Notes: generated by a model not told the origin, from the letters alone. A DNA stretch of 64,000 bases from Fastidiosipila sp. (GCA_012511175.1 JAAZGO010000010.1:69563-133562); one strand, 5' to 3'; counted from the first letter of the stretch, positions 1,718 to 58,015 are shown. Translations and numbers: made by a program.

Positions 1718-3177
1718 GGCAGATCCGTCTCTTCGCTGAACGCGCGGGCCAGGGCGGAAAGGAGCAGCCGTTCCTCCTCCCCGGAAAGGGTTCGCAAGTC
1801 GAACAGGAGGGTATCAAGTGTGGTGCGGCAGAGAATGGGAGGGTCAAAGGCCCGCAGGTTCTGTTCCAGTGAGGAGATTGACCGTGTGCCGGATCTGACC
1901 GCCAGGGCCCAGGAGTGCAAGGGTATTTCCGGCGCCGACCCTCCCCCCATGATGATCTCGGAAGGGATGGCTTCTGCCATGATTCCGTGCCCCGAGAGAG
2001 ACAGAGCGGCTTCTTCCGTTCGCTGGCGGAGCGAATCGTTGTTGTAAAGGACTGAAACAAGCAGGGGGATACGCTCTTTTGCCCGGTCGGGATCCAGGTA
2101 GAGTGCCAAGGTCGCCTCAAGGGCAGCAAGAGTCATCTTGTCACAGCGAAAGGCCCGCATCAAGGGGTGAGCGGTCATTTTCCCCACCAGGTCAGCCCGG
2201 CCCATGAGGATGCCGGCCTGAGGACCTCCCAGGAGCTTGTCACCGGAAAAACAGATCAGGTCCGCGCCGGAGGCAAGGGCTCCACGGACAGTCGGTTCAT
2301 CAGGAAGCAGGGCCGACAGTTCCTCTGAAACAAGGCCGCTCCCCAAGTCATAAATCAAGGGGATCCCATGGCAGCGGGCCAGCTGTGAGAGCTCCGTATC
2401 GCTGACGTCCTCGGTGAAACCTGAAATCCGGAAGTTGCTGCGGTGAACTTTTAGTAGGGCTGCGGTCGAATCACTGATGGCGCGCTCATAGTCGGCCAGG
2501 CGGGTTTTATTGGTGGTGCCAACCTCCCGGAGGATGGCGCCGCTCTCCTCCATGATTTCAGGAACCCTGAATTTCCCCCCGATTTCCACCAGTTCGCCGC
2601 GGGAAACAAGGACCTCCCGGCCCCGGCACAAAGCTGATAGGGCCAGCATGACGGCAGCCGCATTGTTGTTGACCACTGTTGCGGCCTCAACATCAAACAG
2701 GCGGCAGAGCAGGGTTTCCAGGGGAGCTGTTCGTTGACCGCGTCTGTTTTCTGTAAGATCAAACTCCAGCGAGGCATAACCTTCGCTGCAGCGCTGGACG
2801 GCTGCAAGGGCCTCTTTTGCGAGGGGTGCCCGGCCGAGATTGGTGTGGAGGATGGCACCGGTGGCGTTGATGACTTTCCTGATCCCGGGTTTTGATTCGG
2901 TTTCAATTTTCAAAAGAATGGCCCGGAGGAGGACCTCTTCGGACAGCAAGATACTCCCGGCTGCCTGGCAATCTGCCCCAGCTGCTTTTTCAATGTAGGC
3001 AGCGTCAGCAAGGGGATCATCCGCCTTTTTTGTGAGAAAATGGCGTGCGGCCTCGAGGATCCCGCGCACGGCTTCCCTTACCGGATGATAGCCGTTCGAT
3101 TCCCTTGCGGCATCAAGGCGTGAATCACGCAGCAGTTGATCTACTTTCGGCAGGTCACGTGGATTTTCAATGATCAT
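1714..3177 (-). CDS. selA: L-seryl-tRNA(Sec) selenium transferase SelA
   Basis: ORF 1714..3213; SelA-like throughout (INATGAILHTNLGRAP, KVHRSNF, FSGDKLLGGPQAG). Start trimmed to ATG 3177 (MIIENPRDLPKVDQLLRD), which is preceded by GTGAGGAGG RBS. Confidence 0.93.
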   Translation of the reverse strand: MIIENPRDLPKVDQLLRDSRLDAARESNGYHPVREAVRGILEAARHFLTKKADDPLADAAYIEKAAGADCQAAGSILLSEEVLLRAILLKIETESKPGIRKVINATGAILHTNLGRAPLAKEALAAVQRCSEGYASLEFDLTENRRGQRTAPLETLLCRLFDVEAATVVNNNAAAVMLALSALCRGREVLVSRGELVEIGGKFRVPEIMEESGAILREVGTTNKTRLADYERAISDSTAALLKVHRSNFRISGFTEDVSDTELSQLARCHGIPLIYDLGSGLVSEELSALLPDEPTVRGALASGADLICFSGDKLLGGPQAGILMGRADLVGKMTAHPLMRAFRCDKMTLAALEATLALYLDPDRAKERIPLLVSVLYNNDSLRQRTEEAALSLSGHGIMAEAIPSEIIMGGGSAPEIPLHSWALAVRSGTRSISSLEQNLRAFDPPILCRTTLDTLLFDLRTLSGEEERLLLSALARAFSEETDLP

Positions 3178-3211
3178 CCTTTTGGCCTCCTCACCTGAGA
3201 GTCTCAAGATC

Positions 3212-3333
3212 ATCTTACCAAAAGGGAGTGGTAGAATAGTGCCGAATCAGCGGCGATCGCCGCGGCAGACAGAAGGGATGCCGGTCATGCGAAACAAACT
3301 GAAAAAAATCGTCCGGTCCTGGGTTTCTTTCCT
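3212..3333. repeat. left copy of 122-bp direct repeat (duplicated upstream region + first codons of the ATP-grasp gene)
   Basis: Hand-aligned base by base with 15348-15469: identical except one position (3328 t vs 15464 a). Contains the same TGgTAGAAT -10-like element and the MPVMRNKLKKIVRSWVSF coding start, here running into a stop at 3361. Confidence 0.9.
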
Positions 3334-16502: not shown

Positions 16503-17546
16503 TCAGATCACCCGGATGGCCACCCCCTGCCAGGGGGTCAGGCGTCCGATCGGCCAGGCTTTTTCACCCAATCGGCTCAGGGCGTCCAGATAGGGGTCGA
16601 CCTGATCTTCCCGCATAGCCAGCAGGAGACCGCCGGACGTCTGCGGGTCGAACATCAGATCCGTCAGAGCCAGCGGGATCTCTCCATCAAAGCGAACCCG
16701 GTCGCCAACGTAACGCCTGTTGCGGTAAGTTCCGCCCGGCAGCATGCCCTCTTTGGACATGTCCAGGGCACCGGGCAGCAGGGGAACGGACCGGCTGTCG
16801 ATTTCAACGGTCACTTTCCGGTCTCTCCCCGCCATTTCCCTCAGATGTCCCAGAAGGCCGAAACCCGTGATGTCAGTCGATGCCGATACATCGAGGCCGA
16901 CGGAAGCTTCAAAGGCATAGCGGTTGAGTTTCGCCATGGTGTCAATCATGCGCTGGACCGTCTCACCGTCCAGCAGGCCCGCCTTGGCGCCGGTTGCCAG
17001 AGCCCCGGTCCCCAGCGGTTTTGTCAGGACAAGGATATGGCCAGGATGGGGGGTATCATTTCGCCGGATCTGATCAGGGTGGCAGAGCCCCATGACAGAC
17101 AGGCCAAACTTGGGCTCTTCATCTTCGATGCTGTGGCCGCCCGCGACTGTGACACCGGCTTCCATGCATTTATCGGCCCCGCCCTCGAGAATCCTCCGAA
17201 CGACGGCCAAGTCAAGGCAGCTCGAAAAACAGAGGAGATTCAGGGCTGTTTTGGGGACCGCTCCCATAGCGTAGACGTCACTCAGGGCATTGGCCGCGGC
17301 GATCCGGCCGTAATCGAAGGGGTCGTCAACGATGGGCGGAAAGAAATCCACCGTCTGGATGATGGCGATATCATCAGAAACAAGGTAGACACAGGCATCA
17401 TCCTCGGTCTCATAACCGACCAGGAGGCGGTCATCTTTTTTGATCGGCAAGCCGGTCAGGAGCTCGGAAAGGACCCCCGGTCCCACTTTGGCCCCTCAGC
17501 CGCCGGCGCTGGTCAGCTGAGTCAGCCGGATTTCCTGGTCAGACAT
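16503..17546 (-). CDS. selD: selenide, water dikinase SelD, selenocysteine-containing (in-frame UGA at 17496-17498)
   Basis: The track ORF (16503..17486) starts at an internal GTG. Reading upstream through the TGA gives MSDQEIRLTQLTSAGG-U-GAKVGPGVLSEL from ATG 17546 behind AAGGAGGTG. U aligns with the catalytic Cys/Sec of the SelD glycine-rich loop. Confidence 0.9.
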
Positions 17547-23450: not shown

Positions 23451-23590
23451 ATGCAGGATTAGAACCTGCGTTACAGGCCCGGCAACTTCAAATTCTGTTC
23501 AAATTAAAGCATTAGGCTGGCCGTAAATGGGGACTCGTCATGAGGAGTCAGTGTTGCCCGATGACTAATGGATAGATGGAGGATAGGGCA

Positions 23591-31980: not shown

Positions 31981-32153
31981 GGGAATGGGCTTCAGAATCC
32001 CCGGGGATATGTAACAAATGCGCCTTAATTATTTGCATCGCCAGAGGCTGCTCTTTACTACAATATTATGTGCTATACTTTCTGAGGTTTGGGTTTTTGC
32101 GAAGATCCCGAGTCCCAATTATCATCAATCATCACTAAGCAAGGAGAGAAACA

Positions 32154-33629
32154 ATGATCGATCTCACGATCCATAAGGACGCGCTCGAAAACGCGGTAAA
32201 ACGCGCGCGCGAGAACAAAATTATCATCCCCACCTTCGCGCAGCTGCGCGATCCCGTTAAAAATGTACCCGACAAAATTAAAAAAGCGCTTCACCAGGTC
32301 GGGACCGATGAAGTCGATCCCCTCAACTTGTTCCGCATTACCTGGAAAAATGAACCCAGGCGCGACGGCGGTGAATACGGAGGGGTCAACTACATCGAAA
32401 TCCCCCGCGAACTCACGCGTGTCAAGGCCCGGGTCTTTACCATGGTCGGCAAGTGGTTCCCGACCGGCTGCCACAAAGTCGGTGCTTCATACGGCTGCCT
32501 GGTCCCCCGTCTTGTGACGGGTCAGTTCGACCCTTACCATAACTGGGCTGTCTGGCCGTCAACCGGCAACTACTGCCGCGGCGGCGCTTTTAACTCCAAA
32601 CTTCTGGGCTGCAAGTCAATCGCGATCCTTCCGGTCGAGATGAGTGTTGAGCGTTTCAACTGGCTTCAAAATATCGCTGACGAAGTGATCGGAACTCCCG
32701 GCTGTGAAAGTGACGTTTACGAAATCTTTGAAAAAGTCAAGGAAATCCGGCGGACCCGCCACGATGCCGTCATCTTCAACCAGTTTGAGGAGATGGGCAA
32801 TGTTCTTTGGCACTACCACGTAACGGGCCCGGCCCTCGAAGAAGTCTACGAAGAAGTCAAAACTGAAAACTCACGCCTTTTCGGGGTTTTCTTTACCAGC
32901 GGCAGCGCAGGCACCATGAGCGCAGGCGACTATCTGAAGGACCATTATCCGCGCATCAAAGTGGCCGTGGGCGAGGCGTTGCAGTGCCCCACCATCCTCA
33001 ACAATGGTTTCGGCCGTCACCGCATCGAGGGAATCGGCGACAAGCACATCCCCTTTGTCCACAACATAAAAAATACTGATCTGGTCGCTGCCATTGACGA
33101 CAATAATTCGCAGAATCTGCTCCGCCTCTTCAACGAGGAAGTCGGGCACGAATACCTCAGGAAACAATCCGGACTGACGGACGAATTTTTGAAGCAGCTG
33201 CCCCTGCTGGGCATCAGCGGGATCGCCAACATTCTCGGCGCCATCAAGATGGCCAAGTACTATGAACTCACGGAGAATGACGTTCTGCTCACGGTGGCGA
33301 CCGACTCGGCCGAGATGTACCAGTCCCGCCTGGTCGAGCTCGAAGAGGCGGAGGGACCTTACACCGAGGAATTGGCAGCGCGCGATTACTGGCACAACCT
33401 CATGTCCATGAAAACAGATAACATGGAGGAATTCACTTACATCACCCGCAAGCGCGTCCACAATCTCAAGTACTACACCTGGGTCGAGCAGCAGGGCCGC
33501 ACCTTGGAAGAACTGAACGCGCAGTGGTATGACGAACATTACTGGGACGATCTCCATAAGCAGGCCGATGAAATCGACCGGCTGACCATGGAGTTCAACG
33601 AACGCACCGGCGTGCTCGCCAACATGTGA
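32154..33629 (+). CDS. fold-type II (Trp-synthase-beta-like) PLP-dependent enzyme, first gene of the selenium-linked purine cluster
   Basis: 491 aa behind AAGGAGAG. Candidate PLP lysine in PTGCHKVGA and a glycine loop FFTSGSAGTMSAG. The sequence is not similar to E. coli diaminopropionate ammonia-lyase YgeX as I recall it. Confidence 0.75.
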   Translation: MIDLTIHKDALENAVKRARENKIIIPTFAQLRDPVKNVPDKIKKALHQVGTDEVDPLNLFRITWKNEPRRDGGEYGGVNYIEIPRELTRVKARVFTMVGKWFPTGCHKVGASYGCLVPRLVTGQFDPYHNWAVWPSTGNYCRGGAFNSKLLGCKSIAILPVEMSVERFNWLQNIADEVIGTPGCESDVYEIFEKVKEIRRTRHDAVIFNQFEEMGNVLWHYHVTGPALEEVYEEVKTENSRLFGVFFTSGSAGTMSAGDYLKDHYPRIKVAVGEALQCPTILNNGFGRHRIEGIGDKHIPFVHNIKNTDLVAAIDDNNSQNLLRLFNEEVGHEYLRKQSGLTDEFLKQLPLLGISGIANILGAIKMAKYYELTENDVLLTVATDSAEMYQSRLVELEEAEGPYTEELAARDYWHNLMSMKTDNMEEFTYITRKRVHNLKYYTWVEQQGRTLEELNAQWYDEHYWDDLHKQADEIDRLTMEFNERTGVLANM

Positions 33630-33665
33630 TCCAGCAAGCCTGATTTGGGAGGAATGAATCAGAAA

Positions 33666-34862
33666 ATGAAAATCAATGAACTGATCAAAGAGCTGGAAGG
33701 CTACGACTACAAGGGATTGTACCAGGATGATTTCTTTTTGACCTGGGATAAATCCCAGGATGAGATTATGGCTCTCTTCACGGTCGCCGACGCCCTGCGT
33801 GAGCTCCGTGAGAACAATAGAAGCGCCCGGATTTTTGACTCGGGCCTGGGCATCTCCCTCTTCCGCGACCAGTCGACGAGGACCAGGTTCTCTTTCGCCT
33901 CGGCCTGCAATTTCCTGGGCCTGCAAGTCCAGGACTTCGACGAGGGTAAATCACAGATCGCGCACGGTGAGACTGTCAAAGAGACAGCCAATATGATTTC
34001 TTTTATGGCGGACGTCATTGGCATCCGCGATGACATGTACATTGGCAAAGGCCATACCTACATGAAGAGCGTTTCGGAATATGTCAGGGAAGGCTATGAG
34101 GATGGCGTGCTGGAGCAGCGGCCGACCCTGGTCAACCTGCAATGTGACATTGACCACCCGACCCAGTCCATGGCCGATGCCCTCCACATCATCCACGAAT
34201 TCGGCGGTGTCGAAAATCTGAGAGGTAAAAAGCTTGCCATGACCTGGGCCTATTCGCCTTCCTATGGCAAACCCCTGTCGGTTCCCCAGGGAATCGTCGG
34301 CCTTATGACCCGCTTTGGCATGGAGGTGGTGCTGGCGCATCCGGAAGGCTATGACATCATGGACGATATTGAAGATGTTGCCAGACGAAATGAAGAACTT
34401 TACGGCGGCAAGTTCACACGTGCCGCATCCATGGAGGAAGCCTTCAAAGATGCCGATATTGTCTATCCGAAAAGCTGGGCACCTTTCAAGGCCATGGAAA
34501 TCCGCACCGACCTTTACGCCAAGGGCGATCAGGCGGGGATCAAGGCCCTGGAACAGGAGCTGCTGGCCCAAAACGCGCAGCACAAGGACTGGGCCTGCAC
34601 AGAAGACATGATGAAGCTGACCCGCGGTGGCAAGGCACTTTACATGCACTGCCTGCCGGCGGATATTTCCGGGGTCTCATGCGAGGAAGGCGAAGTGGAC
34701 GCTTCCGTCTTCGACCGCTACCGGATTCCCCTCTACAAAGAGGCCAGCTACAAGCCTTACATCATCGCGGCCATGATTTTCCTCCAGAAGATCAGGCACC
34801 CCGGCGCGAAGCTCGAAGAACTCTGGAACAGTGCCTCCCCCCGCTGGGCCGACAAGGGTTGA
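33666..34862 (+). CDS. ygeW: knotted carbamoyltransferase YgeW
   Basis: ORF 33645..34862 trimmed to ATG 33666. Long blocks match E. coli YgeW as recalled: GLGISLFRDQSTRTRFSFASA, EGKSQIAHGETV, NLQCDIDHPTQSMAD, AYSPSYGKPLSVPQG, LYMHCLPADISGVSC. Confidence 0.92.
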   Translation: MKINELIKELEGYDYKGLYQDDFFLTWDKSQDEIMALFTVADALRELRENNRSARIFDSGLGISLFRDQSTRTRFSFASACNFLGLQVQDFDEGKSQIAHGETVKETANMISFMADVIGIRDDMYIGKGHTYMKSVSEYVREGYEDGVLEQRPTLVNLQCDIDHPTQSMADALHIIHEFGGVENLRGKKLAMTWAYSPSYGKPLSVPQGIVGLMTRFGMEVVLAHPEGYDIMDDIEDVARRNEELYGGKFTRAASMEEAFKDADIVYPKSWAPFKAMEIRTDLYAKGDQAGIKALEQELLAQNAQHKDWACTEDMMKLTRGGKALYMHCLPADISGVSCEEGEVDASVFDRYRIPLYKEASYKPYIIAAMIFLQKIRHPGAKLEELWNSASPRWADKG

Positions 34863-34953
34863 AACAATTGTTTAATGACTGCCCCGGGAATGACAAAGAA
34901 GCCGGGGCAGTCGTCAATCAAGTCAAATTACTGAAATAAGGAGAATACCCAAG

Positions 34954-36177
34954 ATGGCAAAAACTGCAATTGATTACGATCGCATACGTCAAGTAGCTGA
35001 GAGCTACAAAGAAGATATGGTTAAATTCCTTCGCGACCTGATCAGGATCCCCGGTGAGAGCTGCGGAGAAGAAGGCGTGGCGCGCCGGATTAAAGAAGAG
35101 ATGGAAAAACTGGGCTATGACAAAGTCGAGTTTGACCAGCTTGGCAACGTACTCGGCTGGATGGGGACGGGCGACCGCATCATTGCCTACGACGGCCACA
35201 TTGACACGGTTGGCATCGGTGAGATTACCAACTGGAAATTTGATCCCTACGAGGGCTATGAGAATGAGACCGAGGTCGGTGGACGCGGTGCTTCAGATCA
35301 GCTGGGCGGTGTGGTGTCCTCTGTGTATGGTGTCCGCATGGCCAAGGACCTGGGCCTGATCGATGATGACGTGACGCTGCTGGTCACCGGCACCGTCCAG
35401 GAGGAAGATTGCGACGGCATGTGCTGGCTCCACCTGATCGAAAACGAAAAGATTAAACCCGAGTTTGTCGTTTCGACCGAGCCGACCGACATGCATGTCT
35501 ACCGGGGCCACCGCGGGCGGATGGAAATCCGTGTCGAAGTCAAGGGTATTTCCTGTCACGGCTCTGCGCCGGAGCGCGGTGAAAATGCCATTTACAAGAT
35601 GGCCGATATCCTGAAGGAAATCGAAGAACTGAACAACCATCTGAAGGATGACCCCTTCCTGGGCAAGGGAACGGTCACCACCTCTCAGATTTTCTACACC
35701 TCGCCTTCCCGCTGTGCGGTTGCGGACAGCTGCGCCATCTCGCTGGACCGCCGCCTGACCTGGGGAGAGACCTGGGAATCGGCAATCGCTGAGATTGAAG
35801 CCCTGCCCTCGGTCAAAAAGCACGGCGCTGTCGTCACCATGTACAAGTATGACCGCCCGTCCTGGACCGGTTTTGTTTACGAGCAGGAATGCTTCTTCCC
35901 CACCTGGGTCATTCCCGGGGACGCCCCCCAGACCCGGGCGCTTGTGGATGCCTACACCGAACTCTACGGTGCTCCCAAAGTCGACAAGTGGACTTTCTCA
36001 ACCAACGGCGTGGCCATCATGGGCCGGCATGGCATACCCTGCATCGGCTTGGGCCCCGGCAAGGAAGCCCAGGCACACGCACCCAACGAAATCACCTGGA
36101 AAGAGGATCTGGTCCGCTGCGCGGCCATCTACAGCGTCATGCCCAAGCTGTACGTGGACATCACCAAAGAAGCCTGA
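34954..36177 (+). CDS. ygeY: YgeY-family selenium-metabolism-linked M20 peptidase/hydrolase
   Basis: 407 aa. M20 metal ligands are in context ([17 protein letters not shown]) and the gene sits next to ygeW as in E. coli. Confidence 0.88.
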
Positions 36178-36339
36178 GGCAGATTGCCTTTCGAAACCCG
36201 GAGCCGGGACTTCCGCAGTGAAGTCCCGGCTTCTTCATCCGGATAGGGTGGGGCAAAACTGGTAAACTAAAGACCAGCCGCTTTGTCTCCGGAACAGGCA
36301 GCTGTACAAAAAATTCCAACCAGGGAGGGGTGGCCAATC

Positions 36340-39300
36340 ATGAGCGACATAATGAGACCCATCAGTTTTGCCAATCTAATCGAGTGGAGCCTCAGCGAAT
36401 ACAAAAAACAGGGAAGGGTTTTCGGACTTGACAAGAGCAAGTTCTATGAAAACCGGTCGGGGAACCGTTTTGTCACCCCCTTTGGTGACCGGATCGCGTC
36501 CGCGATCGGGCCGGCCGCAGGCCCCCATTCACAGCTGGCCCAAAATATCATTGTTTCCTACTTGGCAGGCGCGCGCTTCATTGAATTGAAAACGGTTCAA
36601 AAAATGGACGGTGAAGAGATCCGTCAAGCGGTGGCCAAGCCCTGCATCAATGCAGAGGACGAGTGCTACAACTGCGAATGGTCAACGGAACTGACCGTTG
36701 AGCAGGCCTTTGACGAATACGTCAAGGCCTGGATTGCCATCAAGGTGCTGGCACTTGAATTCGGCCTGTCCGACGGTAATGATTTTGCTTTCAACATGAG
36801 TGTGGGCTACGACCTGGAGGGCATCAAACTTCCAAAAATGGATGCTTTTATCGAGGGCTTGAAAGACGCCTCACAGATTCCTCTTTTCCGGGAATCCATC
36901 GGCTACCTGAAAGACCACCCGGGTCTGTTTGAGAGAGTGGTTGAAAAAGATCTCGATGCAATTTCCCCGCATATCTGCCGCCAGGCAACCCTGTCAACCC
37001 TCCACGGCTGTCCGCCGGATGAGATTGAACGGATTGCCCATTACCTGCTGACCGAAAAAAAGGTTCACACCTTTGTCAAGTGCAATCCCACCATGCTGGG
37101 TTATGAATTTGTGCGCCGGACCTTGGATGACCTCGGCTACGACTATATTGCCTTTCCAGATAAACACTTCCTGGCCGATCTGCAGTATCCCGACGCGGTG
37201 GGGATTTTCACCCGCATGCTGGCTGTGGCTGAAGAAGAAAAGCTGGCTTTCGGCGTCAAGCTCTCCAATACCTGCCCGGTCGATGTGGCGCGCGGCGAGG
37301 TGCCGTCTGAGGAAATGTATATGTCGGGCCGGGCCCTCATGCCTTTGACCATCAATCTGGCCCTCAAACTGTCGCGCGCCTTTGAAGGCAGACTGCCGGT
37401 CTCCTTCGCGGGCGGCGCCGATGCCTTCAATCTGCAGGACCTGCTGGAGGTGGGGATCGGCCCCGTCACCGTCGCGACGACACTCCTAAAACCAGGCGGT
37501 TACATGCGCTTGGGCCAGATGGCCCGTCAAACGGAAAATCTGCTGGGCCCGGGCGGCAGGATTGACCTGTTCAAGCTGGAGAAACTGGCGGCGAAAATGG
37601 TGGCCGACCCCCGCATGCAAAAACGCTGGCGGGAAAAAGTTGCCTCCAGAAAAACGGCATCTGAACTGCCGCTCTATGATTGCTACAAGGCGCCCTGCAA
37701 GGACGGCGGCTGCCCGATCGGACAGCAGATTCCCGAGTACAATACCCTGGTTGCCAGGGGCGAATACGATCAGGCCATGCAGGTTATCGCCATTGACAAT
37801 GCCTGCCCGACCATTACGGGAGTTCTGTGTGCCCAGCCCTGCAGGGAAAAATGTACCCGGCTGGATTACGATGTCTCCCTTCACATGAGAGAAATCAAAC
37901 TGGAGGCGGCGGATGAGGCCCAGGACGCTTACATCGAAAAAATGACCGTCAACCCTTTGAGAACCGGCAGTAAAGCCTGTGTGATCGGGGCGGGTCCCGG
38001 CGGCATGGCCGCAGCTTATTATCTGAGGCGAAACGGAATCGAAACCCATGTCTACGAAAAGCGGGCCGCCTCCCACGGTATTGTCCGCTATGCCATTCCC
38101 TCCTTCCGGATCAGCGAAGAGGAAATTGACCGCGACTTCCGTCTGGTTGAAGCAACGGGCGTCACTTTCCATTTCGGCGCCAGCCCGGATTTCGATCTGC
38201 ATCAACTGAAAAAAAGCTATGACTATGTCATTGTCGCGACTGGGGCCTGGGCCGAAGGCCGTCCGCCCGTCAAAGAAGGCGGAGAGCTGGTGCTGGATGC
38301 CCTGGACTTTTTGACCGCTGTCAAGGAAAAAGGGCCCCGCAGCCTGGGCAGACGGATTGCAGTCATCGGGGCGGGCGATGTCGCCATGGATACGGCACGG
38401 CTCGCCAAACGGATGCCGGGGGATCCGGAGGTGATCATCGTCTACCGCCGGACGGAAATGTCCGCGCCCGCCAGTCAAGACGAATTCGATGAGGCCATGA
38501 AAGAGGGCGTCGGCTGGCTGGAACTCCTGGCTCCAGTCAGCTATGACGGGAAAAATCTGGTCTGTGAAAGACAAAAATTGGGTGCCTTCGACGAATCGGG
38601 CCGCCGTTCCTCGATCGGCACAGGTGAATTTGAAACCCTGGAGTTTGATACGGTGATCGGGGCTACCGGCGCCCGCGTCGACAAGGGTCTTTTTGAAAAA
38701 TTGGGCGTGGCCACGGACCGTGACGGCAACCCCCGGTTGTCGGAATACATGGAATCCTCCATCGATGGCGTCTACCTGGCCGGTGACTGCCGCCGGGGAC
38801 CCTCGACCGTTGTGGCTGCGATGGGAGACGCCAAAAAAGCGGCTCTCCACATTCTGGCCAGGGAAGGTCTGGATCACGACTTCATCCATGTCCCGGTTCC
38901 TGTTGACGAGGCAGTCATTCTCGAGCGCCGCGGGGAACTTGCGTCGGCACGATTGCCTTCCGAAGAAGGCCTCCGCTGCCTGATCTGCGACCAGGTCTGC
39001 CGTATCTGTACGGAAGTTTGCCCCAACCGGGCCAATGTGGCCATACCGGTTGCCGGTTTTGTCAACGCGGAACAGATCGTCCATATTGACGGCATGTGCA
39101 ACGAATGCGGCAATTGCGCCACCTTCTGCCCCCATGCCGGCAAACCTTACAAGGATAAGTTAACAGTTTTCTGGAACGGGGCGGATTTTGCCGATTCAGA
39201 CAATACGGGCTTCCTGCAGCTTGAACAAGGCCTGTATCGGATCCGTGACGACCGGGGCCGTGTTTATGATGTGGGGCAGGATGAACTGGCGGCCAAGGCA

Positions 39301-39387
39301 GGTGACCGGATGGCAGCGGTTGTAACGGCTGTTGCCAACAAATTTCCCTGGTTATTGAAGAATGAACAGGATTGCAGGCAGCCCTGA
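36340..39387 (+). CDS. ygfK: YgfK-type multidomain Fe-S flavoprotein (annotated elsewhere as putative selenate reductase subunit YgfK)
   Basis: ORF 36283..39387 trimmed to ATG 36340 behind AGGGAGGGG. It has a GltD-like 4Fe-4S segment (CYKAPCKDGGCP...CAQPCREKC), two dinucleotide folds (VIGAGPGGMAAAYYL, IAVIGAGDVAMD) and a C-terminal 2x[4Fe-4S] ferredoxin (CLICDQVCRICTEVCP, CNECGNCATFCP). Confidence 0.88.
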   Translation: MSDIMRPISFANLIEWSLSEYKKQGRVFGLDKSKFYENRSGNRFVTPFGDRIASAIGPAAGPHSQLAQNIIVSYLAGARFIELKTVQKMDGEEIRQAVAKPCINAEDECYNCEWSTELTVEQAFDEYVKAWIAIKVLALEFGLSDGNDFAFNMSVGYDLEGIKLPKMDAFIEGLKDASQIPLFRESIGYLKDHPGLFERVVEKDLDAISPHICRQATLSTLHGCPPDEIERIAHYLLTEKKVHTFVKCNPTMLGYEFVRRTLDDLGYDYIAFPDKHFLADLQYPDAVGIFTRMLAVAEEEKLAFGVKLSNTCPVDVARGEVPSEEMYMSGRALMPLTINLALKLSRAFEGRLPVSFAGGADAFNLQDLLEVGIGPVTVATTLLKPGGYMRLGQMARQTENLLGPGGRIDLFKLEKLAAKMVADPRMQKRWREKVASRKTASELPLYDCYKAPCKDGGCPIGQQIPEYNTLVARGEYDQAMQVIAIDNACPTITGVLCAQPCREKCTRLDYDVSLHMREIKLEAADEAQDAYIEKMTVNPLRTGSKACVIGAGPGGMAAAYYLRRNGIETHVYEKRAASHGIVRYAIPSFRISEEEIDRDFRLVEATGVTFHFGASPDFDLHQLKKSYDYVIVATGAWAEGRPPVKEGGELVLDALDFLTAVKEKGPRSLGRRIAVIGAGDVAMDTARLAKRMPGDPEVIIVYRRTEMSAPASQDEFDEAMKEGVGWLELLAPVSYDGKNLVCERQKLGAFDESGRRSSIGTGEFETLEFDTVIGATGARVDKGLFEKLGVATDRDGNPRLSEYMESSIDGVYLAGDCRRGPSTVVAAMGDAKKAALHILAREGLDHDFIHVPVPVDEAVILERRGELASARLPSEEGLRCLICDQVCRICTEVCPNRANVAIPVAGFVNAEQIVHIDGMCNECGNCATFCPHAGKPYKDKLTVFWNGADFADSDNTGFLQLEQGLYRIRDDRGRVYDVGQDELAAKAGDRMAAVVTAVANKFPWLLKNEQDCRQP

Positions 39388-39413
39388 ACTGCCGGCAGAC
39401 AGGAGGGAGCAAA

Positions 39414-40736
39414 ATGATTATCGGTAATGGAAGACTGGTGACCAATGACCCGGATCACCCCTATTTTGAAAAAGGCGCCGTGCGTGTAGCCGGTGAGCTT
39501 ATCGACGCGGTCGGCAACTTTGACGACCTGAAAGAACAATACCCCGATGACGAGGTGCTGGACGCGGAGGGACGCGTCATTATGCCGGGCATGATCAACG
39601 CCCACACACACATTTACAGTTCCTACGCCCGGGGAATGGGCGTGTCCAAGCCGACACGGAACTTTCCTGAGATTCTGAAAAACCTCTGGTGGGCGCTGGA
39701 CCGCAGCCTGACCATGGAAGACAATGAACTGTCTGCCTATACGACCTACATTGACAGTATTCGCAACGGTGTGACGACCCTCTTTGATCATCACGCCAGC
39801 CCCCATGCCGTGGAGGGTTCACTTTTCACCTTGGCTGAAGCGGCAAAGACCATTGGCATCCGCGGCTCTTTTTCCATGGAACTTTCCGACCGCGACGGCG
39901 TCAAAGTAGCCGAACAGGAAATCAAGGAAAATGTCGATTTCATCAAAGCCATGAACACGGACGAACAGGATATGGTCAAAGGCATGTTCGGCATGCATGC
40001 CTCCTTCACGATTTCAGACAAGACCATGGAAAAGGTCAGGACCGCCATGGAAGGCATTGATGCAGGATACCACATCCATGTCGGTGAGGGCCGGGAGGAC
40101 CAGTATGACAGCCTGAAGAAGTACGATATGCGAGTGACGGAGCGGCTGTTGGGCTGGGGTCTGCTGGGCCCCAGGTCAATCGCGGTTCACGCCGTTAATG
40201 TCAACGGACGTGAACTCGATATCCTGGCGGAAACAGATACGACGGTTGTCCACAATCCCATGTCCAACATGGGCAATGCGGTCGGGGCCACTCCGGTTCT
40301 CGGCATGCTGCGCCGCGGGATCCGCCTGGGTTTGGGCACAGATGCCTACACCCACGATATGTTTGAGTCCATCAAGGTCTCAAAGATCCTGCAGTCGCAC
40401 CGTCTGTCCGATCCGACGGTCGGTTTTGCCCAGGCCCTGAAACTGCAATATGAAGGCAACCCGGCCATCGCTGCCCTCCACTTCAGGCGGCCACTCGGTG
40501 TTTTAAAGGAAGGGGCTTATGCCGATCTGATTACACTCGACTATTATCCCTTCACACCTTTCGGCGCTGACAACTGGAAAGGCCACCTGCTCTTTGGCGG
40601 CTACGGCCGTATGACCCGCGACGTGATGATCAACGGCAGGATTGTCATGAGAAACCGCGAAATCCTGACGGTCGACGAAGAGAAGATCTTCGCCCATGCG
40701 GCAGAACGGGCCGCGGCTATCTGGCCCAAGCTGTAG
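39414..40736 (+). CDS. ssnA: SsnA-type amidohydrolase (chlorohydrolase/aminohydrolase family)
   Basis: ORF 39372..40736 trimmed to ATG 39414 behind AGGAGGGAG. Contains the metal-binding PGMINAHTHIY and HVGEG, and follows ygfK as in E. coli. Confidence 0.85.
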   Translation: MIIGNGRLVTNDPDHPYFEKGAVRVAGELIDAVGNFDDLKEQYPDDEVLDAEGRVIMPGMINAHTHIYSSYARGMGVSKPTRNFPEILKNLWWALDRSLTMEDNELSAYTTYIDSIRNGVTTLFDHHASPHAVEGSLFTLAEAAKTIGIRGSFSMELSDRDGVKVAEQEIKENVDFIKAMNTDEQDMVKGMFGMHASFTISDKTMEKVRTAMEGIDAGYHIHVGEGREDQYDSLKKYDMRVTERLLGWGLLGPRSIAVHAVNVNGRELDILAETDTTVVHNPMSNMGNAVGATPVLGMLRRGIRLGLGTDAYTHDMFESIKVSKILQSHRLSDPTVGFAQALKLQYEGNPAIAALHFRRPLGVLKEGAYADLITLDYYPFTPFGADNWKGHLLFGGYGRMTRDVMINGRIVMRNREILTVDEEKIFAHAAERAAAIWPKL

Positions 40737-40790
40737 AAAACCGGGGCACCCCGGATCCACGGGGTGCCTGATCAATCCAAGAGGATAAGA

Positions 40791-42194
40791 ATGGAAGAAT
40801 CTGTATTGCTCAAGGACGGCTTTATTGTCCTTCCCGACGAGACCCTGCGGGGCAGTATCCGGATCAAAGGCGAATCCATTGAGGCAATCGGTGACTTGAC
40901 CCCGGAAGATCAGGAAGAGGTCCTCGACTGCCGCGGTCTTTATCTGCTGCCGGGCGGCATCGAGACCCATACACACCTCCAGCTGGAATCCATGGGTACC
41001 GTGACCGCTGATGATTTTGCCAGCGGCACCCGGGCAGCCCTGGCCGGGGGAACGACCACAGTCATTGATTTTGCCACCCAGTTTCACGGCGAAACCATGG
41101 CAGAGGGCTTAAGGTGCTGGCACCAGAAGGCGGACGGCAAGTGTGCCATCGACTACGGCTTTCATATGGCCCTGACCGAATGGAACCAGGGCCTGAAAGA
41201 AGAAATGGAATCGGTCGTCGAGGGGGGTGTCACTTCCTTCAAGATGTATATGGCCTACAAAAACAACATGATGGTCCAGGAAGACCAGATTTATGATGCC
41301 CTGGAGGAGGCGCAGCGGTTGGGGGCCACCATCGGTTTTCATTGTGAAAACGGACTGCTGATCGATGTGCTGGTCCGCCGTGAACGTGAACTGGGGCACC
41401 TGTCGCCTTATTACCATCAAATCACCCGGCCGCCTGAACTGGAGGAGGAAGCCATTGTCCGGCTGGAGGCAGTCAATCATCTCCTCCATGCCAATCACCA
41501 CATCGTCCATCTTTCAACCGCCAGGGGCCTCGGCGCCGTCCGGCGGTCCAGGGACCGCGGCATTCATGTTATTGTCGAGACCTGTCCGCAGTACCTGCTT
41601 CTGGATTCTTCCCGCTACGGCGGCCCGTCCAATGATGACTTTGAGGCGGCCAAGTTTGTCATGAGCCCGCCGCTGCGTGAGCGCCGGGACCAGGAGGCCC
41701 TCTGGAGCGGGTTGGCCTCCGGTGAAATTCAGTTCGTCGGCACCGATCACTGCTCCTTCAACTTCAAAGGCCAAAAAGAGATGGGCAGGGGCGATTTCTC
41801 GAAAATTCCCAATGGCGCGCCGGGTATTGAGCTGCGCTATCATCTGCTCTACAGTTTTGGCGTCGCCCGCGGCCGGATGGACATCAACCGTTTTTCCGAG
41901 ATCACTTCAACCAACGCGGCCAAATATTTCGGTCTGTACCCGCGCAAGGGCATTCTGCAGCCGGGCAGTCATGCCGATATTGTCGTCTTCGACCCCGAGC
42001 CGGAATGGACGGTCAGGTCGGAGGATCTTCACGAAAACTGCGACTACACCCCCTACGAAAACTTCCCGCTCAAGGGCAGGGTGCGGGACGTATTCCTGCG
42101 GGGCTGCCGCAAAGTTGTTTCTGGTAAGATTGTGAGGGAGGAAGCGGATGGCCGGTACCTCAGAAGGCAGCTGCCCGACATGGACATCCACTGA
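40791..42194 (+). CDS. hyuA: cyclic amidohydrolase: D-hydantoinase/dihydropyrimidinase (HyuA/YgeZ type)
   Basis: ORF 40764..42194 trimmed to ATG 40791. Contains PGGIETHTHL, a carboxylated-lysine context SFKMYMAYK and VGTDHCSF. Confidence 0.88.
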   Translation: MEESVLLKDGFIVLPDETLRGSIRIKGESIEAIGDLTPEDQEEVLDCRGLYLLPGGIETHTHLQLESMGTVTADDFASGTRAALAGGTTTVIDFATQFHGETMAEGLRCWHQKADGKCAIDYGFHMALTEWNQGLKEEMESVVEGGVTSFKMYMAYKNNMMVQEDQIYDALEEAQRLGATIGFHCENGLLIDVLVRRERELGHLSPYYHQITRPPELEEEAIVRLEAVNHLLHANHHIVHLSTARGLGAVRRSRDRGIHVIVETCPQYLLLDSSRYGGPSNDDFEAAKFVMSPPLRERRDQEALWSGLASGEIQFVGTDHCSFNFKGQKEMGRGDFSKIPNGAPGIELRYHLLYSFGVARGRMDINRFSEITSTNAAKYFGLYPRKGILQPGSHADIVVFDPEPEWTVRSEDLHENCDYTPYENFPLKGRVRDVFLRGCRKVVSGKIVREEADGRYLRRQLPDMDIH

Positions 42195-42245
42195 TTCAAA
42201 GAGCAAGAGTTATGGTATGAAGGACCAACGAAGGAGGAAGCAAAC

Positions 42246-44816
42246 ATGCCTTGGACTTTAACCGTCAACCGGCAAAATTACAGCCTTTCACAAGACAAGC
42301 GGCTGATCGATTTCCTGCGGGACGACCTGGGCCTGACGTCTGTCAAGGATGGTTGCAGTGAAGGCACCTGCGGCACCTGTTCGGTCATCGCGGATGGAAA
42401 ACTTGTCAAATCCTGCATCATGAATGTGTCGCGCTTTGATGGATCCGGCATTACCACAGTCGAAGGATTGTCTCCCCGTGAAAAAGAAGTTTACGTTCAC
42501 GCCTTTGCCGAGTGCGGTGCGGTCCAGTGCGGTTTTTGCACACCCGGCATGGTCCTGGCTGCCAAGGTTCTCCTCGATAACAACCTCAACCCCAGCCGGG
42601 ATGAGATTAAAAAGGCCATCACAGGCAATCTCTGCCGCTGCACCGGCTATAAAAAAATCATCGATGCCATTGGGATGGCGGCTGAGTTTTTCCGGGAGGA
42701 CAAAGCGGTTCCCGCCGCCGATACTGAGATCCGGGTCGGCGACCGGTCCCAGCGCATTGATGTCATGGAGAAAGTTCTGGGGACCGGCAGGTTTCCTGAT
42801 GATTACCGATTTGACGATATGGTCTACGGACGGGCACTGCGCACACCTTACCCGCGTGCCCGCGTCAACCGGATCGATATTTCGAAGGCATTGGAGCACC
42901 CTGACTGCATCACTGTTCTGACCGCGGCCGACGTGCCCAACAACACCATCGGTCACATCGTCCGGGATTGGGATGTCATGATTCCGGAAGGGGGAGTGAC
43001 GCGCTATATCGGTGACTCGGTTGCCCTGGTCGCCACAGGTAAACGCGAAAGCCTCCAGGAGGTCCTCGATCTGATTGAAGTTGATTACACCGAGCTGGAA
43101 CCAATTCTGGATCCCTTTGAGGCCATGAAGGAGGATGCCCCGAAAATCCACGAAAAAGGCAACATCCTGTCAAGCGAACGGCTGATTCGCGGAGATGCCC
43201 ACAAGGCCGTTGCCGAGGCGGCGCATGTGGTGACGGAGACCTACCGTGTTTCCTGGCAGGAACATGCCTTCCTGGAGCCGGAATGCGCCATCGGATGGCC
43301 TTCCGAAGACGGCGGAGTCCATCTGATTACCGCCTCCCAATCGATCTATGATGAGCAGCGTGAAGTGTCGGAGATGCTGATGATCGAACCGGAGCGCGTG
43401 CATATTCAGTCAGGCCTGGTCGGCGGCGCTTTTGGAGGCCGCGAGGACATGAGCGTGCAGCACCATGCCGCCCTGCTGGCCTGGAAAACGGGACGCCGTG
43501 TCAATGTGAGGCTGTCACGCTATGAGAGCACCATCGTCCACACGAAGCGGCACCCCATGACCATGAAGATGACTACCTCCTGTGATGAAAAAGGACGGAT
43601 CACGGCCCTGATCGCAGAGATTGTCGCCGATACCGGAGCCTATGCCTCACTGGGAGGCCCCGTCACCCAGCGGGCCTGCACCCACGCAGCCGGACCCTAC
43701 AATTTCCAGAATATCGATATTTCGGGCAAGGCCGTCTACACCAACAATGTTGTATCAGGCGCCTTCCGGGGTTTTGGCGTCACCCAAAGCTGCTACGCCA
43801 TGGAATGCAACCTGAATCTGCTGGCGGAAAAGTGCGGCATGGATCCCTGGGAATTCCGCTATCTCAATGTGGTCAGGCCGGGAGATGTGCTGCCCAACGG
43901 CCAGATTGTGGATCCAAGCTGCGGTATTGCTGAATGCCTGGAAGCGGTCAAGGAAGCCTATCAATCCAGCCCCTATGCGGGCATCGCCTGCAGCTTTAAG
44001 AACAGCGGCCTGGGTGTCGGGGTTCCTGACTTCGGTCGCTGCACGCTGTCAGTTGAAAAGGGGAAGGTCCATATCCGCACCTCTGCTGCCTGCTCGGGGC
44101 AGGGAGTCGCCCAGGTGGTGACCGCCGTCGTCTGTCAGACACTGGGCTGCGACGTGACCGACACAGTTTTCGAACTGCCCAACACGGACCGTACCCCGGA
44201 CGCCGGAACCAGCACGGCCTCCCGCCAGACTCTTTTTACCGGGGAAGCAACCCGGCAGGCGGCCCAGGACTTGAAAAGAGCGCTTGACGCGGTCGGGGGC
44301 GATCTGTCCAAGATGGAAGGCATGGAATTCTTCGGTGAGTTCGGCCCTCCCACGGATCCGCTGGGCTCACCCAAGGAGCACCCGATCAGCCACATTGGCT
44401 ACAGCTACGGCTGCGAAGTGGCCATACCGGATGAAAAAGGTGAAATTCAGAAGATGGTAGGAGCCTACGATGTCGGAACACCGGTCAATATCACCGCCGT
44501 GGAGGGACAGATCGAAGGCGGCTGTGTCATGGGACTGGGATATGCCCTGACCGAGGATTTCGTCAACCCGGGCGGTATTCCCAAGTTCAAGCTGGGCACC
44601 TACGGTCTTTTCCGGGCCAACCGGATTCCTGAAATCGAGACGTATGTGGTCAAGGGACCGGGATACGTTGATGTCGCCTACGGTGCCCGCGGAATCGGTG
44701 AGCTGGCCTGCATCCCCATCGCACCGTCAGTCGCCCATGCCTATTTCAGGCTGGACGGCCGGATGAGGACCAGTCTTCCCATGGAGGATACCTTCTACCG
44801 GAAGAAGAAGGCATGA
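42246..44816 (+). CDS. molybdopterin hydroxylase large protein with fused N-terminal [2Fe-2S] domains (selenium-dependent xanthine dehydrogenase type)
   Basis: 856 aa. The N-terminus has CSEGTCGTCSV and CGFCTPGM...CRCTGY (two 2Fe-2S clusters), followed by an aldehyde oxidase/xanthine dehydrogenase Moco body (GGAFGGRED, GFGVTQ, GQIEGG). No FAD domain is present. Confidence 0.88.
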   Translation: MPWTLTVNRQNYSLSQDKRLIDFLRDDLGLTSVKDGCSEGTCGTCSVIADGKLVKSCIMNVSRFDGSGITTVEGLSPREKEVYVHAFAECGAVQCGFCTPGMVLAAKVLLDNNLNPSRDEIKKAITGNLCRCTGYKKIIDAIGMAAEFFREDKAVPAADTEIRVGDRSQRIDVMEKVLGTGRFPDDYRFDDMVYGRALRTPYPRARVNRIDISKALEHPDCITVLTAADVPNNTIGHIVRDWDVMIPEGGVTRYIGDSVALVATGKRESLQEVLDLIEVDYTELEPILDPFEAMKEDAPKIHEKGNILSSERLIRGDAHKAVAEAAHVVTETYRVSWQEHAFLEPECAIGWPSEDGGVHLITASQSIYDEQREVSEMLMIEPERVHIQSGLVGGAFGGREDMSVQHHAALLAWKTGRRVNVRLSRYESTIVHTKRHPMTMKMTTSCDEKGRITALIAEIVADTGAYASLGGPVTQRACTHAAGPYNFQNIDISGKAVYTNNVVSGAFRGFGVTQSCYAMECNLNLLAEKCGMDPWEFRYLNVVRPGDVLPNGQIVDPSCGIAECLEAVKEAYQSSPYAGIACSFKNSGLGVGVPDFGRCTLSVEKGKVHIRTSAACSGQGVAQVVTAVVCQTLGCDVTDTVFELPNTDRTPDAGTSTASRQTLFTGEATRQAAQDLKRALDAVGGDLSKMEGMEFFGEFGPPTDPLGSPKEHPISHIGYSYGCEVAIPDEKGEIQKMVGAYDVGTPVNITAVEGQIEGGCVMGLGYALTEDFVNPGGIPKFKLGTYGLFRANRIPEIETYVVKGPGYVDVAYGARGIGELACIPIAPSVAHAYFRLDGRMRTSLPMEDTFYRKKKA

Positions 44817-45817
44817 CCCCGGTCCGCCCCCTGCGCGCCGCCGCGGTTATCGTGGCATCCAAGCCGCTTGACCCGGCTGATGCCGTGGAGGGTTTCGGCG
44901 GGGAGAGAGGCCGCATGCTGCCGGCCATGATCCGGGCGGGACAGGTGACCTTTATTGAACGGGTGATCATCCGCTTCCAGCTTGCCGGGGCCGCTCCCAT
45001 TATTGTTATTACGGGATTTGAAAATGACCGGCTGGAGCGCCATCTGGCCAGGATGAGCGTTGTTTGCCTGAATCAATCCGGCTGGAAAGAATCAACGGTT
45101 TTTGACGACGCCATGCTGGGTCTCCGCTATGTGGAAAGAAGCTGCCGGGGATGTGAAAAGGTGCTGCTCACCACTCCTTTGATTCCTTCCGTCAAGGAGG
45201 AAACCCTGGCGGCACTGCTGGACTCGACGGAAGCCATCGCTGTTCCCGTTTATGAGGGAATCGAGGGGCTTCCCCTGGCCATCCGGCGCGAACTTATTTC
45301 TGAAATTCCGCTAAAAGCGCCAGGCAAAAACCTGGCTGATCTCGCCGGCTGGTCACCGGGACAGCCGGAAAAGATCGAGGTTGGCGACCAGGGGATTCTA
45401 ACCCGCCTTGACGGTCGGGATGCCATTGCGGACCTGGAGTTTTTGCAGGGTGAAAAACACGGCCTGCCCATGCGCGTCCGGCTGAAGCTGAATCTTGCCA
45501 GGGAATCGGTATTTTTCGGCCCGGGCCCCGCGACCCTCCTGCGCCTGATCGATGAGACGGGATCAGTCCGGACCGCCTGCGTTCGCATGAAGCTTTCCTA
45601 CAGCAAGGGCTGGCAGATCCTGAATCTTCTGGAGGAAGAGCTTGGCGCGGTGGTGGTTGAAAGGAAACCGGGCGGCCAGGAGGGAGGAAGCAGCAAGCTG
45701 ACGGCTGTAGGCCTTGATCTTTTGCACCGTTACGAACAGCTGACCTCGGAGACGCAGAAGAGCGTCAATCAGCTTTTTGATCAGATCTTTGGGGATTTTC
45801 CTCAAAAAAAAGCTTAG
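44813..45817 (+). CDS. fusion protein: MobA/MocA(YgfJ)-like nucleotidyltransferase domain + ModE-N/LysR-type winged-helix domain
   Basis: Start overlaps the xdh stop (ATGA 44813-44816). The N-terminal about 200 aa is MocA-like but with an atypical glycine loop (VIVASKPLDPADAVEGFGGERGRM). The C-terminal GPGPATLLRLIDETGSVRTACVRMKLSYSKGWQILNLLEEELG matches the ModE N-terminal HTH pattern. Confidence 0.65.
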   Translation: MTPVRPLRAAAVIVASKPLDPADAVEGFGGERGRMLPAMIRAGQVTFIERVIIRFQLAGAAPIIVITGFENDRLERHLARMSVVCLNQSGWKESTVFDDAMLGLRYVERSCRGCEKVLLTTPLIPSVKEETLAALLDSTEAIAVPVYEGIEGLPLAIRRELISEIPLKAPGKNLADLAGWSPGQPEKIEVGDQGILTRLDGRDAIADLEFLQGEKHGLPMRVRLKLNLARESVFFGPGPATLLRLIDETGSVRTACVRMKLSYSKGWQILNLLEEELGAVVVERKPGGQEGGSSKLTAVGLDLLHRYEQLTSETQKSVNQLFDQIFGDFPQKKA

Positions 45818-58012: not shown

Positions 58013-58015
58013 GGC

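Follow-up and report, generated by a model that had tools for sequence, protein, structure and literature searches.

In 2025, every step of the anaerobic urate route was reconstituted in vitro (Liu et al., bioRxiv 10.1101/2025.04.24.650524; Li et al., Life Metab, PMC12507026), and published genetics exists besides for the orthologous enzyme families. The route begins with a selenium-dependent molybdenum (Mo) hydroxylase acting in reverse, which converts urate into 2,8-dioxopurine; this enzyme is XdhAC (DOPDH) in Clostridium sporogenes, where its dependence on SelD was shown, and XdhD-YgfM in Escherichia coli. YgfK then dearomatises the 2,8-dioxopurine ring with NAD(P)H, ring opening by SsnA yields ureidomethyl-hydantoin, and HyuA produces 2,3-diureidopropionate. 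YgeW phosphorolyses one ureido group of this compound to carbamoyl phosphate, from which ATP is obtained via the carbamate kinase YqeA, YgeY hydrolyses the other to release 2,3-diaminopropionate (DAP), and YgeX turns DAP into pyruvate and ammonia (10.1101/2025.04.24.650524; PMC12507026). Liu et al. and Li et al. disagree over which ureido group is removed by YgeW, and the pathway intermediates have been proposed to be of R (D) configuration. YgeX alone suffices for the last step in both E. coli and C. sporogenes. Here, we analyse an eight-gene operon of this kind in a stretch of 64,000 nucleotides from Fastidiosipila sp. (GCA_012511175.1 JAAZGO010000010.1:69563-133562), hereafter the window, whose host organism is known from metagenome assemblies only.

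Judged from its sequence, this operon genuinely belongs to the 2,8-dioxopurine (reductive uricolytic) clusters, a known family, and is not an unassigned pathway. It very probably encodes the anaerobic reductive urate pathway, with PLP490, the 491-aa pyridoxal phosphate (PLP) enzyme encoded by gene 1, as the proposed terminal enzyme instead of YgeX. The novelty is limited to the variant architecture, that is, the non-orthologous PLP enzyme standing for YgeX and the fusion of a MocA-like protein with a helix-turn-helix (HTH) domain. An earlier reading of the same DNA, made from the sequence alone (the sequence-only reading), had described a system of mostly unassigned steps, a claim which is outdated because Liu et al. 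and Li et al. reconstituted all of them. The ygeX-type gene set implied by its title has to be corrected as well, gene 1 coming from another branch of PLP fold-type II.

The cluster of C. sporogenes (XdhAC, YgfK, SsnA, HyuA, YgeW, YgeY, YgeX, PbuX; Liu et al. 2023/2025) resembles the operon in its FAD-less fused 2Fe-2S/molybdenum cofactor (Moco) enzyme with DOPDH residues, in the same YgfK, SsnA, HyuA, YgeW and YgeY families, and in having the carbamate kinase outside the cluster and, with selD in the window, a putative SelD-dependent selenium trait. Contrary to that cluster, the window has an enzyme of the CysK/CBS fold for YgeX, no purine permease in the operon, an extra MocA-like/ModE-HTH fusion, and its eight genes in one co-directional array. 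With the E. coli locus (ygeW-ygeX-ygeY-hyuA-yqeA ... mocA-ygfK-ssnA-ygfM-xdhD; Li et al. 2025) it shares the reaction logic and the presence of a MocA-type gene. However, E. coli employs XdhD (TIGR03313 type, only 26% identical to the product of gene 7) together with the FAD subunit YgfM and NADH, whereas the window has a TIGR03311-type Mo enzyme with no FAD partner; YgeX, YqeA, YqeB/YqeC and the sigma-54 regulator YgeV, encoded in cis in E. coli, are all absent from the window. In the variant of Clostridioides difficile, UacX replaces YgfK and UacY replaces YgeW plus YqeA, with a Mo enzyme that is FAD-less as in the window. This variant shows that single steps of the pathway have repeatedly been taken over by non-orthologous enzymes. 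Unlike C. difficile, the window keeps YgfK and YgeW, and it is the terminal PLP lyase that has been replaced, a substitution found in neither of the 2025 papers.

A scan of the window for open reading frames (ORFs) returned eight full-length co-directional ORFs on the + strand over 13.7 kb (32154-45817), separated by intergenic gaps of 36, 91, 162, 26, 54 and 51 nt. Genes 7 and 8 overlap by 4 nt (ATGA), which suggests translational coupling of xdh and gene 8, and a GGAG-type ribosome-binding site lies ahead of every one of the eight ORFs. This is the layout given by the sequence-only reading (co-directional genes, gaps of 26-162 nt, one ATGA overlap), and its gene identities held up too, seven of them matching named families. 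Taking the curated NCBIfam cut-offs as the equivalog criterion, six operon proteins score above them with essentially full model coverage. YgeW (762 bits against a cut-off of 500 for TIGR03316) and YgeY (650 against 321.5 for TIGR03526) are each 66% identical to their E. coli counterparts. YgfK reaches 1293.5 bits against 835 over residues 2-1004 (TIGR03315; 43% identity to E. coli YgfK), and SsnA, whose gene follows ygfK after 26 nt, 585 against 444 for NF005540 and 528 against 455.5 for TIGR03314 (34% identity to E. coli SsnA). The D-hydantoinase scores 551 bits against 393 (TIGR02033; 38% identity to E. coli HyuA) and the Mo enzyme 1271 against 830 for TIGR03311, named 'Se-dependent XDH' (xanthine dehydrogenase).

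By sequence, the window thus contains the DOPDH-type Mo enzyme, YgfK with SsnA, the HyuA-type hydantoinase, and YgeW with YgeY, all of which characterise a 2,8-dioxopurine cluster. Missing partners were sought with NCBIfam on all large ORFs of the window and by tblastn with the E. coli proteins. No homolog of YgeX/DpaL was found by tblastn in the 64 kb, nor was a carbamate kinase (YqeA/ArcC), an FAD subunit (YgfM/XdhB) or an XdhA-type XDH; the scan of the flanks for yqeB/yqeC, carbamate kinase and an FAD subunit that the sequence-only reading had proposed therefore came back empty. The absence of the kinase is no argument against membership, since its gene is unlinked to the cluster in C. sporogenes and Collinsella too. 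The eight-gene order recurs in independent metagenome-assembled genomes (loci L003-L005, L084 and L086 of our samples) with 73-93% amino-acid identity, the nearest relative being a locus of an uncultured Mageeibacillus sp. whose YgeW is 91% identical.

The 856-aa product of gene 7 fuses 2Fe-2S and Moco domains in the manner of C. sporogenes XdhAC; it lacks an FAD domain and has no FAD subunit encoded nearby. Its nearest solved structures are Desulfovibrio gigas AOR and the Se-dependent nicotinate dehydrogenase of Eubacterium barkeri, the same structural kinship that Liu et al. report for DOPDH (bioRxiv 10.1101/2025.04.24.650524). A phmmer alignment with bovine xanthine oxidoreductase (XOR) places E400, R476, F510 and T657 of the protein at the bovine positions E802, R880, F914 and A1078, respectively. 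V591 falls at the position of bovine F1009 through the GxGVG motif register, on which this assignment rests because the phmmer alignment sets F1009 against a gap. F1009V and A1078T/S are the DOPDH-specific substitutions (Liu et al., bioRxiv 10.1101/2025.04.24.650524). The T657 and V591 motifs are conserved in all 29 cluster-linked homologs (48-100% identity), and urate clusters of Clostridium, Enterococcus and Acetobacterium, among others, encode homologs with 48-60% identity. On these sequence features, gene 7 is classed as a DOPDH ortholog, the full TIGR03311 name, 'selenium-dependent xanthine dehydrogenase', being a historical label. As a separate observation from pairwise alignment, most cluster cysteines have been lost from the N-terminal 2Fe-2S domain of E. 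coli XdhD (L083), while gene 7 retains the cluster-binding cysteines (CSEGTCGTCSV, CGFCTPG and CRCTGY).

The name of the model, an NCBIfam equivalog, and the conservation of the catalytic Glu, Arg and Phe of xanthine oxidoreductases would also suit a genuine Se-dependent xanthine dehydrogenase, which would feed the pathway by oxidising hypoxanthine or xanthine to urate and would carry out no urate reduction. We regard this as improbable: in C. sporogenes the cluster-encoded FAD-less XdhAC is the DOPDH and the XDH is a separate XdhA-like enzyme, both DOPDH substitutions are present in gene 7 where the XdhA-type enzymes of related loci have Tyr at the A1078 position, and the operon would be left without an enzyme for its first step. 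A hydroxylase that feeds the pathway by purine hydroxylation is likewise not supported: the published enzyme runs in the opposite direction, from urate to 2,8-dioxopurine, a direction and a product that the sequence-only reading had missed. The assignment of the Mo protein in that reading was borne out, the best score being that of TIGR03311 against 457 bits for the aldehyde-oxidoreductase model. It is more improbable still that the operon degrades some other N-heterocycle, namely pyrimidines, nicotinate, or purines by the formiminoglycine route of Rabinowitz. Even though enzymes like dihydropyrimidine dehydrogenase (DPD), dihydropyrimidinase and decarbamoylase are encoded, and a nicotinate dehydrogenase is among the nearest solved Mo enzymes, the operon proteins give equivalog-level matches to all the specific urate-pathway families, YgeW and YgeY stand as close to E. 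coli as stated above, and the Rabinowitz pathway relies on a different gene set.

In the scheme that we propose for this uncultured Mageeibacillus/Saccharofermentanales-like Clostridium, the FAD-less Se-dependent Mo enzyme (gene 7), with the selenium donor supplied by the selD product, would reduce urate to 2,8-dioxopurine, whose ring YgfK (gene 4) would in turn reduce with NAD(P)H. SsnA (gene 5) would open the six-membered (pyrimidine) ring of the resulting dihydro-2,8-dioxopurine to give ureidomethyl-hydantoin, and the hydantoinase (gene 6) would open the five-membered hydantoin ring to give 2,3-diureidopropionate. YgeW (gene 2) would then phosphorolyse one ureido group of this compound to carbamoyl phosphate, yielding ATP via a carbamate kinase encoded outside the window, and YgeY (gene 3) would hydrolyse the remaining one to release DAP. 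Finally, gene 1 instead of YgeX would convert DAP to pyruvate and 2 NH3 by alpha,beta-elimination through aminoacrylate, while gene 8 would supply or regulate Moco-related functions. Steps 1 to 6 are assigned by homology to the reconstituted enzymes, and the terminal step is a proposal of the present analysis. The sequence-only reading had anticipated much of this, its reductive route modelled on pyrimidine catabolism (a DPD-like YgfK, two cyclic amidohydrolases and an M20 decarbamoylase) being essentially the one later shown experimentally. The formation of carbamoyl phosphate by YgeW for ATP agrees with the published reaction, but the carbamate kinase is in neither the operon nor the window; similarly, a terminal deaminating PLP enzyme matches the published route, but gene 1 is not YgeX.

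The DAP lyases and the CysK/CBS branch of PLP enzymes both proceed through an aminoacrylate intermediate, and a fold-type II PLP scaffold is common to gene 1, to YgeX/DpaL and to OASS, CBS and beta-cyanoalanine synthase. Nevertheless, gene 1 has no detectable similarity to E. coli YgeX (BLASTP E = 0.55), and it matches no diaminopropionate ammonia-lyase model in NCBIfam. It belongs to PF00291, and the PDB sequences closest to it come from cysteine synthases and CBS, with E values of 1e-16 and weaker. It is unlike these too, as its scores stay below every NCBIfam cut-off (83 bits against 351 for the CysK model TIGR01139, and 25 against 394 for TIGR01138), and its 491 aa compare with the roughly 300-330 aa of CysK/CysM. 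In its AF2 model (pLDDT 86, pTM 0.89), about 80 N-terminal and 100 C-terminal residues form extensions absent from CysK. A Foldseek search with this model gave beta-cyanoalanine synthase, OASS and CBS as top matches at 20-25% identity, all of them generic and none explaining the terminal extensions. The motifs that mark the CysK/CBS branch (Lys, Asn loop, Gly loop and Ser) are nonetheless there: 33 homologs share without exception the PLP-binding Lys108, the carboxylate loop (S136-T-G-N-Y140), the phosphate loop (S249-G-S-x-G253) and the N1-serine (S355), and gene 1 therefore looks catalytically competent. We place it in a distinct, uncharacterised CysK/CBS-like branch of the PLP fold-type II superfamily on the strength of these comparisons, and not with YgeX. 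An OrtB-like thiolase was also considered as an identity for gene 1, but no match in NCBIfam supported it.

The PLP490 family is very large and slow-evolving, with at least 8000 candidates, all scored ones at E ≤ 1e-10, and with the top 120 homologs at least 66% identical over their full length. Its members are annotated only as 'PLP-dependent enzyme' or 'cysteine synthase'. Our literature search found no characterised PLP490-type enzyme and no mention of a cysteine-synthase-like substitute for YgeX, and the family is mentioned neither in the two 2025 papers nor in the 2022/2023 discovery papers.

The genomic context of PLP490 was surveyed in two samples, one of 80 YgeW-anchored loci, with one genome per species and pathway proteins located by tblastn, and another of 80 PLP490-anchored loci from metagenome contigs. 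In the clustering of neighbours, the greedy ORF caller took antisense ORFs in GC-rich loci, and clusters 3, 5, 7, 12 and 14 were ignored as artefacts. The YgeW-anchored loci carry YgeX only (47), PLP490 only (12) or neither (21, mostly truncated contigs), and never both, an exclusivity with a Fisher's exact p of 5.9e-6. At least one urate-pathway gene lies in the flanks of about 49 of the 80 PLP490-anchored loci, where the commonest layout is divergent (yqeA<-ygeW<-ygeY / yheO-like-> PLP490->). PLP490 holds the place of YgeX in the lower module, which consists of the PLP enzyme, YgeY and YgeW, plus, in most other lineages, the carbamate kinase, encoded directly after ygeW in most other loci. 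A YheO-like protein of about 225 aa (PAS_6 + HTH_22), which is probably a regulator of the lower urate module, adjoins both YgeX-type and PLP490-type modules (L122:4017-4697, + strand, and about 57 other loci, many from Firmicutes) and is absent from the window; since the same protein adjoins both, the two variants may be argued to share a regulon.

A second neighbour of PLP490 is a 413-aa threonine-synthase-like (ThrC-like) PLP enzyme, which has a Cys4 zinc ribbon at its N terminus and passes the NCBIfam 'threonine synthase' cut-off (329 bits against 303 for NF006050); it is encoded at L140:12077-13318 (+) and in 52 other loci, L037, L041, L043, L065 and L067 among them. Its context suggests purine or C3-amino-acid catabolism rather than threonine synthesis. 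The gene is absent from the window and from its nearest relatives. Apart from this, eight loci (L114, L118, L124, L125, L131, L135, L138 and L145) have PLP490 and the ThrC-like gene beside a distant carbamoyltransferase (30-33% identical to YgeW), an SsnA-like amidohydrolase (40-43%) and a Mo hydroxylase 31-33% identical to gene 7; this variant cluster may belong to a different purine or heterocycle pathway.

What gene 1 does is best read, for the sake of economy, as isofunctional DAP lyase activity, that is, the terminal alpha,beta-elimination, a reading to which we lean with modest confidence because all other steps are encoded in the operon, because the gene lies 36 nt 5' of ygeW in the position of the YgeX module, and because PLP490 and YgeX are anticorrelated. 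In the lineage of the window, with its otherwise complete operon, PLP490 is the only candidate for the last step. Several observations weigh against this reading or against the pathway assignment as a whole. Of the 80 metagenome loci, 47 have the ThrC-like gene 15-130 nt 3' of PLP490 on the same strand, as do 5 of the 12 genome loci. In L132 and L151 it is YgeX that takes this partner position, in an overlapping reading frame, L152 has YgeX divergently beside PLP490, and L107 carries PLP490, the ThrC-like gene and YgeX. In L087, L088, L095, L103, L104, L129 and L136, the PLP490/ThrC-like pair is found with no urate gene within 10 kb of it, and in L001 PLP490 stands alone without urate genes beside an amino-acid permease. 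CysK-fold enzymes are typically L-specific and perform beta-replacement, whereas the intermediates of the pathway have been proposed as R (D). The search for ygeX covers the 64-kb window, and a copy elsewhere in the genome is possible. The window lacks a carbamate kinase, yqeB/yqeC, a urate permease and any electron donor to the FAD-less Mo enzyme; induction by urate, dependence on selenium and the enzyme activities given here are all inferred from homology and context.

Since PLP490 is paired with the ThrC-like enzyme and, rarely, with YgeX, its reaction may complement that of the DAP lyase rather than duplicate it, and its substrate may differ (the other enantiomer, a ureido-amino acid such as albizziin, or a beta-replacement). 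Gene 1 would then perform a distinct step in concert with another PLP enzyme, either ThrC-like or YgeX, whose gene lies elsewhere in the genome; candidates are DAP racemisation, beta-elimination of urea from 3-ureidoalanine (albizziin), and beta-replacement of DAP to serine or cysteine, the chemistry that a CysK fold favours. We consider this possible, but clearly less probable than the terminal lyase, given that the lineage of the window (L003-L007, L084-L086) encodes every other step in an operon without the partner, that YgeX needs no partner in E. coli and C. sporogenes, that YgeY has been kept, so that direct urea elimination is not required, and that the exclusivity with YgeX is strict across 59 YgeW-anchored clusters. 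Yet another view would have gene 1 serve general amino-acid metabolism, as a cysteine synthase, cysteine desulfhydrase or serine dehydratase that happens to lie beside the urate genes, with a ygeX elsewhere performing the last step. Cysteine synthase and CBS are indeed its only family-level matches, and homologs occur in loci without purine genes, such as the L001, L087, L088 and L095 mentioned above. This is unlikely, as gene 1 is the first gene of the operon and close to ygeW, about 60% of PLP490 loci carry urate-pathway genes, the anticorrelation with YgeX is marked (p = 6e-6), its scores fall far below the CysK/CysM equivalog cut-offs, and CysK does not have its N- and C-terminal extensions.

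Table 1. Coordinates of the operon genes, candidate signals and selenium genes in the window.
Feature	Position	Strand	Basis
Gene 1, PLP490, 491-aa PLP enzyme	32154..33629	+	PF00291 (fold-type II)
Gene 2, YgeW knotted carbamoyltransferase	33666..34862	+	TIGR03316
Gene 3, YgeY M20 hydrolase	34954..36177	+	TIGR03526
Gene 4, YgfK (DOPOR), Fe-S/FMN/FAD reductase	36340..39387	+	TIGR03315
Gene 5, SsnA amidohydrolase	39414..40736	+	NF005540, TIGR03314
Gene 6, HyuA-type D-hydantoinase	40791..42194	+	TIGR02033
Gene 7, fused 2Fe-2S + molybdopterin hydroxylase (predicted DOPDH)	42246..44816	+	TIGR03311
Gene 8, MocA/MobA-like + ModE-N-type winged HTH	44813..45817	+	PF12804, TIGR00637
Candidate sigma-70-type promoter TTGCGA-17-TATCAT	32097..32125	+	consensus scan, 9/12 matches
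14-bp GC-rich stem-loop then UUCUUCAU, ygeY-ygfK spacer	36200..36233	+	RNA fold
selD selenophosphate synthetase	16503..17546	-	TIGR00476, 358 bits
selA	1714..3213	-	TIGR00474, 528 bits
selB	starts 1717, runs off window	-	572-aa open frame beginning MKHVIIGTAGHVDHGKSSL; GTPase motif only

Gene 8 combines a MobA-like NTP-transferase domain (residues ~36-208) with a ModE-N-type winged HTH (residues ~224-324), and stand-alone homologs of the HTH part, of 128-140 aa, are encoded in clusters L007 and L014. It scores 31 bits with PF12804, as well as 60 with TIGR00637 (ModE repressor domain) and 62 with the DVU_1551-family NTP transferase, the last two below the NCBIfam cut-offs, and only 26 against a cut-off of 186 with the MocA model TIGR03310. 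A global MAFFT alignment with MocA was uninformative, and the weak, marginal BLASTP alignment with E. coli MocA (17% identity) sets TTPLIP opposite THGDMP. Since, in this weak alignment, the Mg-binding Asp is perhaps lost, gene 8 may be a regulator rather than an active cytidylyltransferase. The two alternatives are a Moco cytidylyltransferase that carries a DNA-binding tail and a regulator whose sensor domain has degenerated.

The three selenium genes upstream in the window are those named by the sequence-only reading, selA and selD by their family models and selB by its GTPase motif only; selA and selB constitute the selenocysteine-insertion machinery. As for the selenium trait, selD is present, and yqeB/yqeC were not found in the window. 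SelD also belongs to the selenoproteins: codon 17 of its gene is an in-frame TGA (17498-17496), corresponding to the U of the motif TSAGG-U-GAKVG, and a mechanical ORF list begins selD only after this TGA. A search for tRNA genes in the window returned none, and hence there is no selC in it.

Regarding transcription, the candidate promoter lies 29 nt 5' of gene 1 and is weak, matching sites being no commoner in the region than in shuffled sequence. The boundaries of the transcription unit rest on spacing only, because the number of sites in the consensus scan for promoters and terminators was not above shuffled expectation. Folding of 36178-36300, in the 162-nt spacer between ygeY and ygfK, gave -52.4 kcal/mol (z = -3.3, with 0 of 200 shuffles as stable), and the hairpin after ygeY is followed by a U-rich tract; similarly stable hairpins follow ygeW (z = -4.8) and ssnA (z = -4.0). 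The ygeY-ygfK hairpin may be a partial terminator or a processing site between a lower module (genes 1-3) and an upper one (genes 4-8), a separation that may mirror the module split in other genomes. At gathering thresholds, Rfam returned no riboswitch or other RNA family for the entire window, and hence no purine or Moco riboswitch upstream of the operon.

The flanks are unrelated to the operon, with TrkH, TrkA and a DedA/VTT protein upstream, and a major facilitator superfamily (MFS) fragment, an acyl-CoA ligase and an aminotransferase downstream. Directly after the operon, a 165-aa ORF (45950-46447, +) weakly matches the C-terminal half of MFS transporters and could be what is left of a transporter gene; the locus is otherwise without a permease for urate or purines. 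Elsewhere in the window, a low-GC stretch at 3978-15000 (0.45-0.49 against ~0.55 elsewhere, with strongly positive GC skew) starts at a fragment of an IS1634-family transposase (3978-4457) and encodes an aminotransferase, DhaK/DhaL, a ribose-type ABC transporter, a glycerol dehydrogenase and a short-chain dehydrogenase/reductase; it looks like a horizontally acquired sugar/glycerone island between selA and selD. A 1376-aa protein with six isopeptide-forming RrgB-type fimbrial domains (23576-27706, +; TIGR04226, 386 bits) is a Gram-positive pilus or adhesin subunit, and 56411-60340 (+) encodes a type IV pilus/type II secretion set with the PilB/GspE ATPase, the PilT ATPase and the PilC/GspF platform protein.

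The pathway is relevant to host urate homeostasis and gout; it is already solved, and this locus is a further member of it from an uncultured Clostridium. What the locus adds is PLP490, which we would give even chances of being an undescribed and widespread alternative to YgeX for the last purine step, paired with the ThrC-like enzyme in most other lineages and maybe acting on another substrate (an enantiomer or a ureido-amino acid) or giving another product. Among the clusters with an identifiable PLP gene, 12 of 59, about one in five, carry PLP490 instead of YgeX, and a second PLP partner often accompanies it. The neighbourhood scoring of Li et al. was based on PF00291, which lumps PLP490 with YgeX (PMC12507026), and Kasahara et al. 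count as purine degraders only those with dpaL. If the alternative is true, surveys that define urate-degrading gut bacteria by ygeX/dpaL would miss a set of degraders, including some represented by human gut metagenome contigs. The PLP490 family is thus a concrete and testable lead, whose characterisation would complete the enzymology of the pathway variants, would provide a function for a very large conserved family, and could bear on the stereochemistry and order of ureido cleavage.

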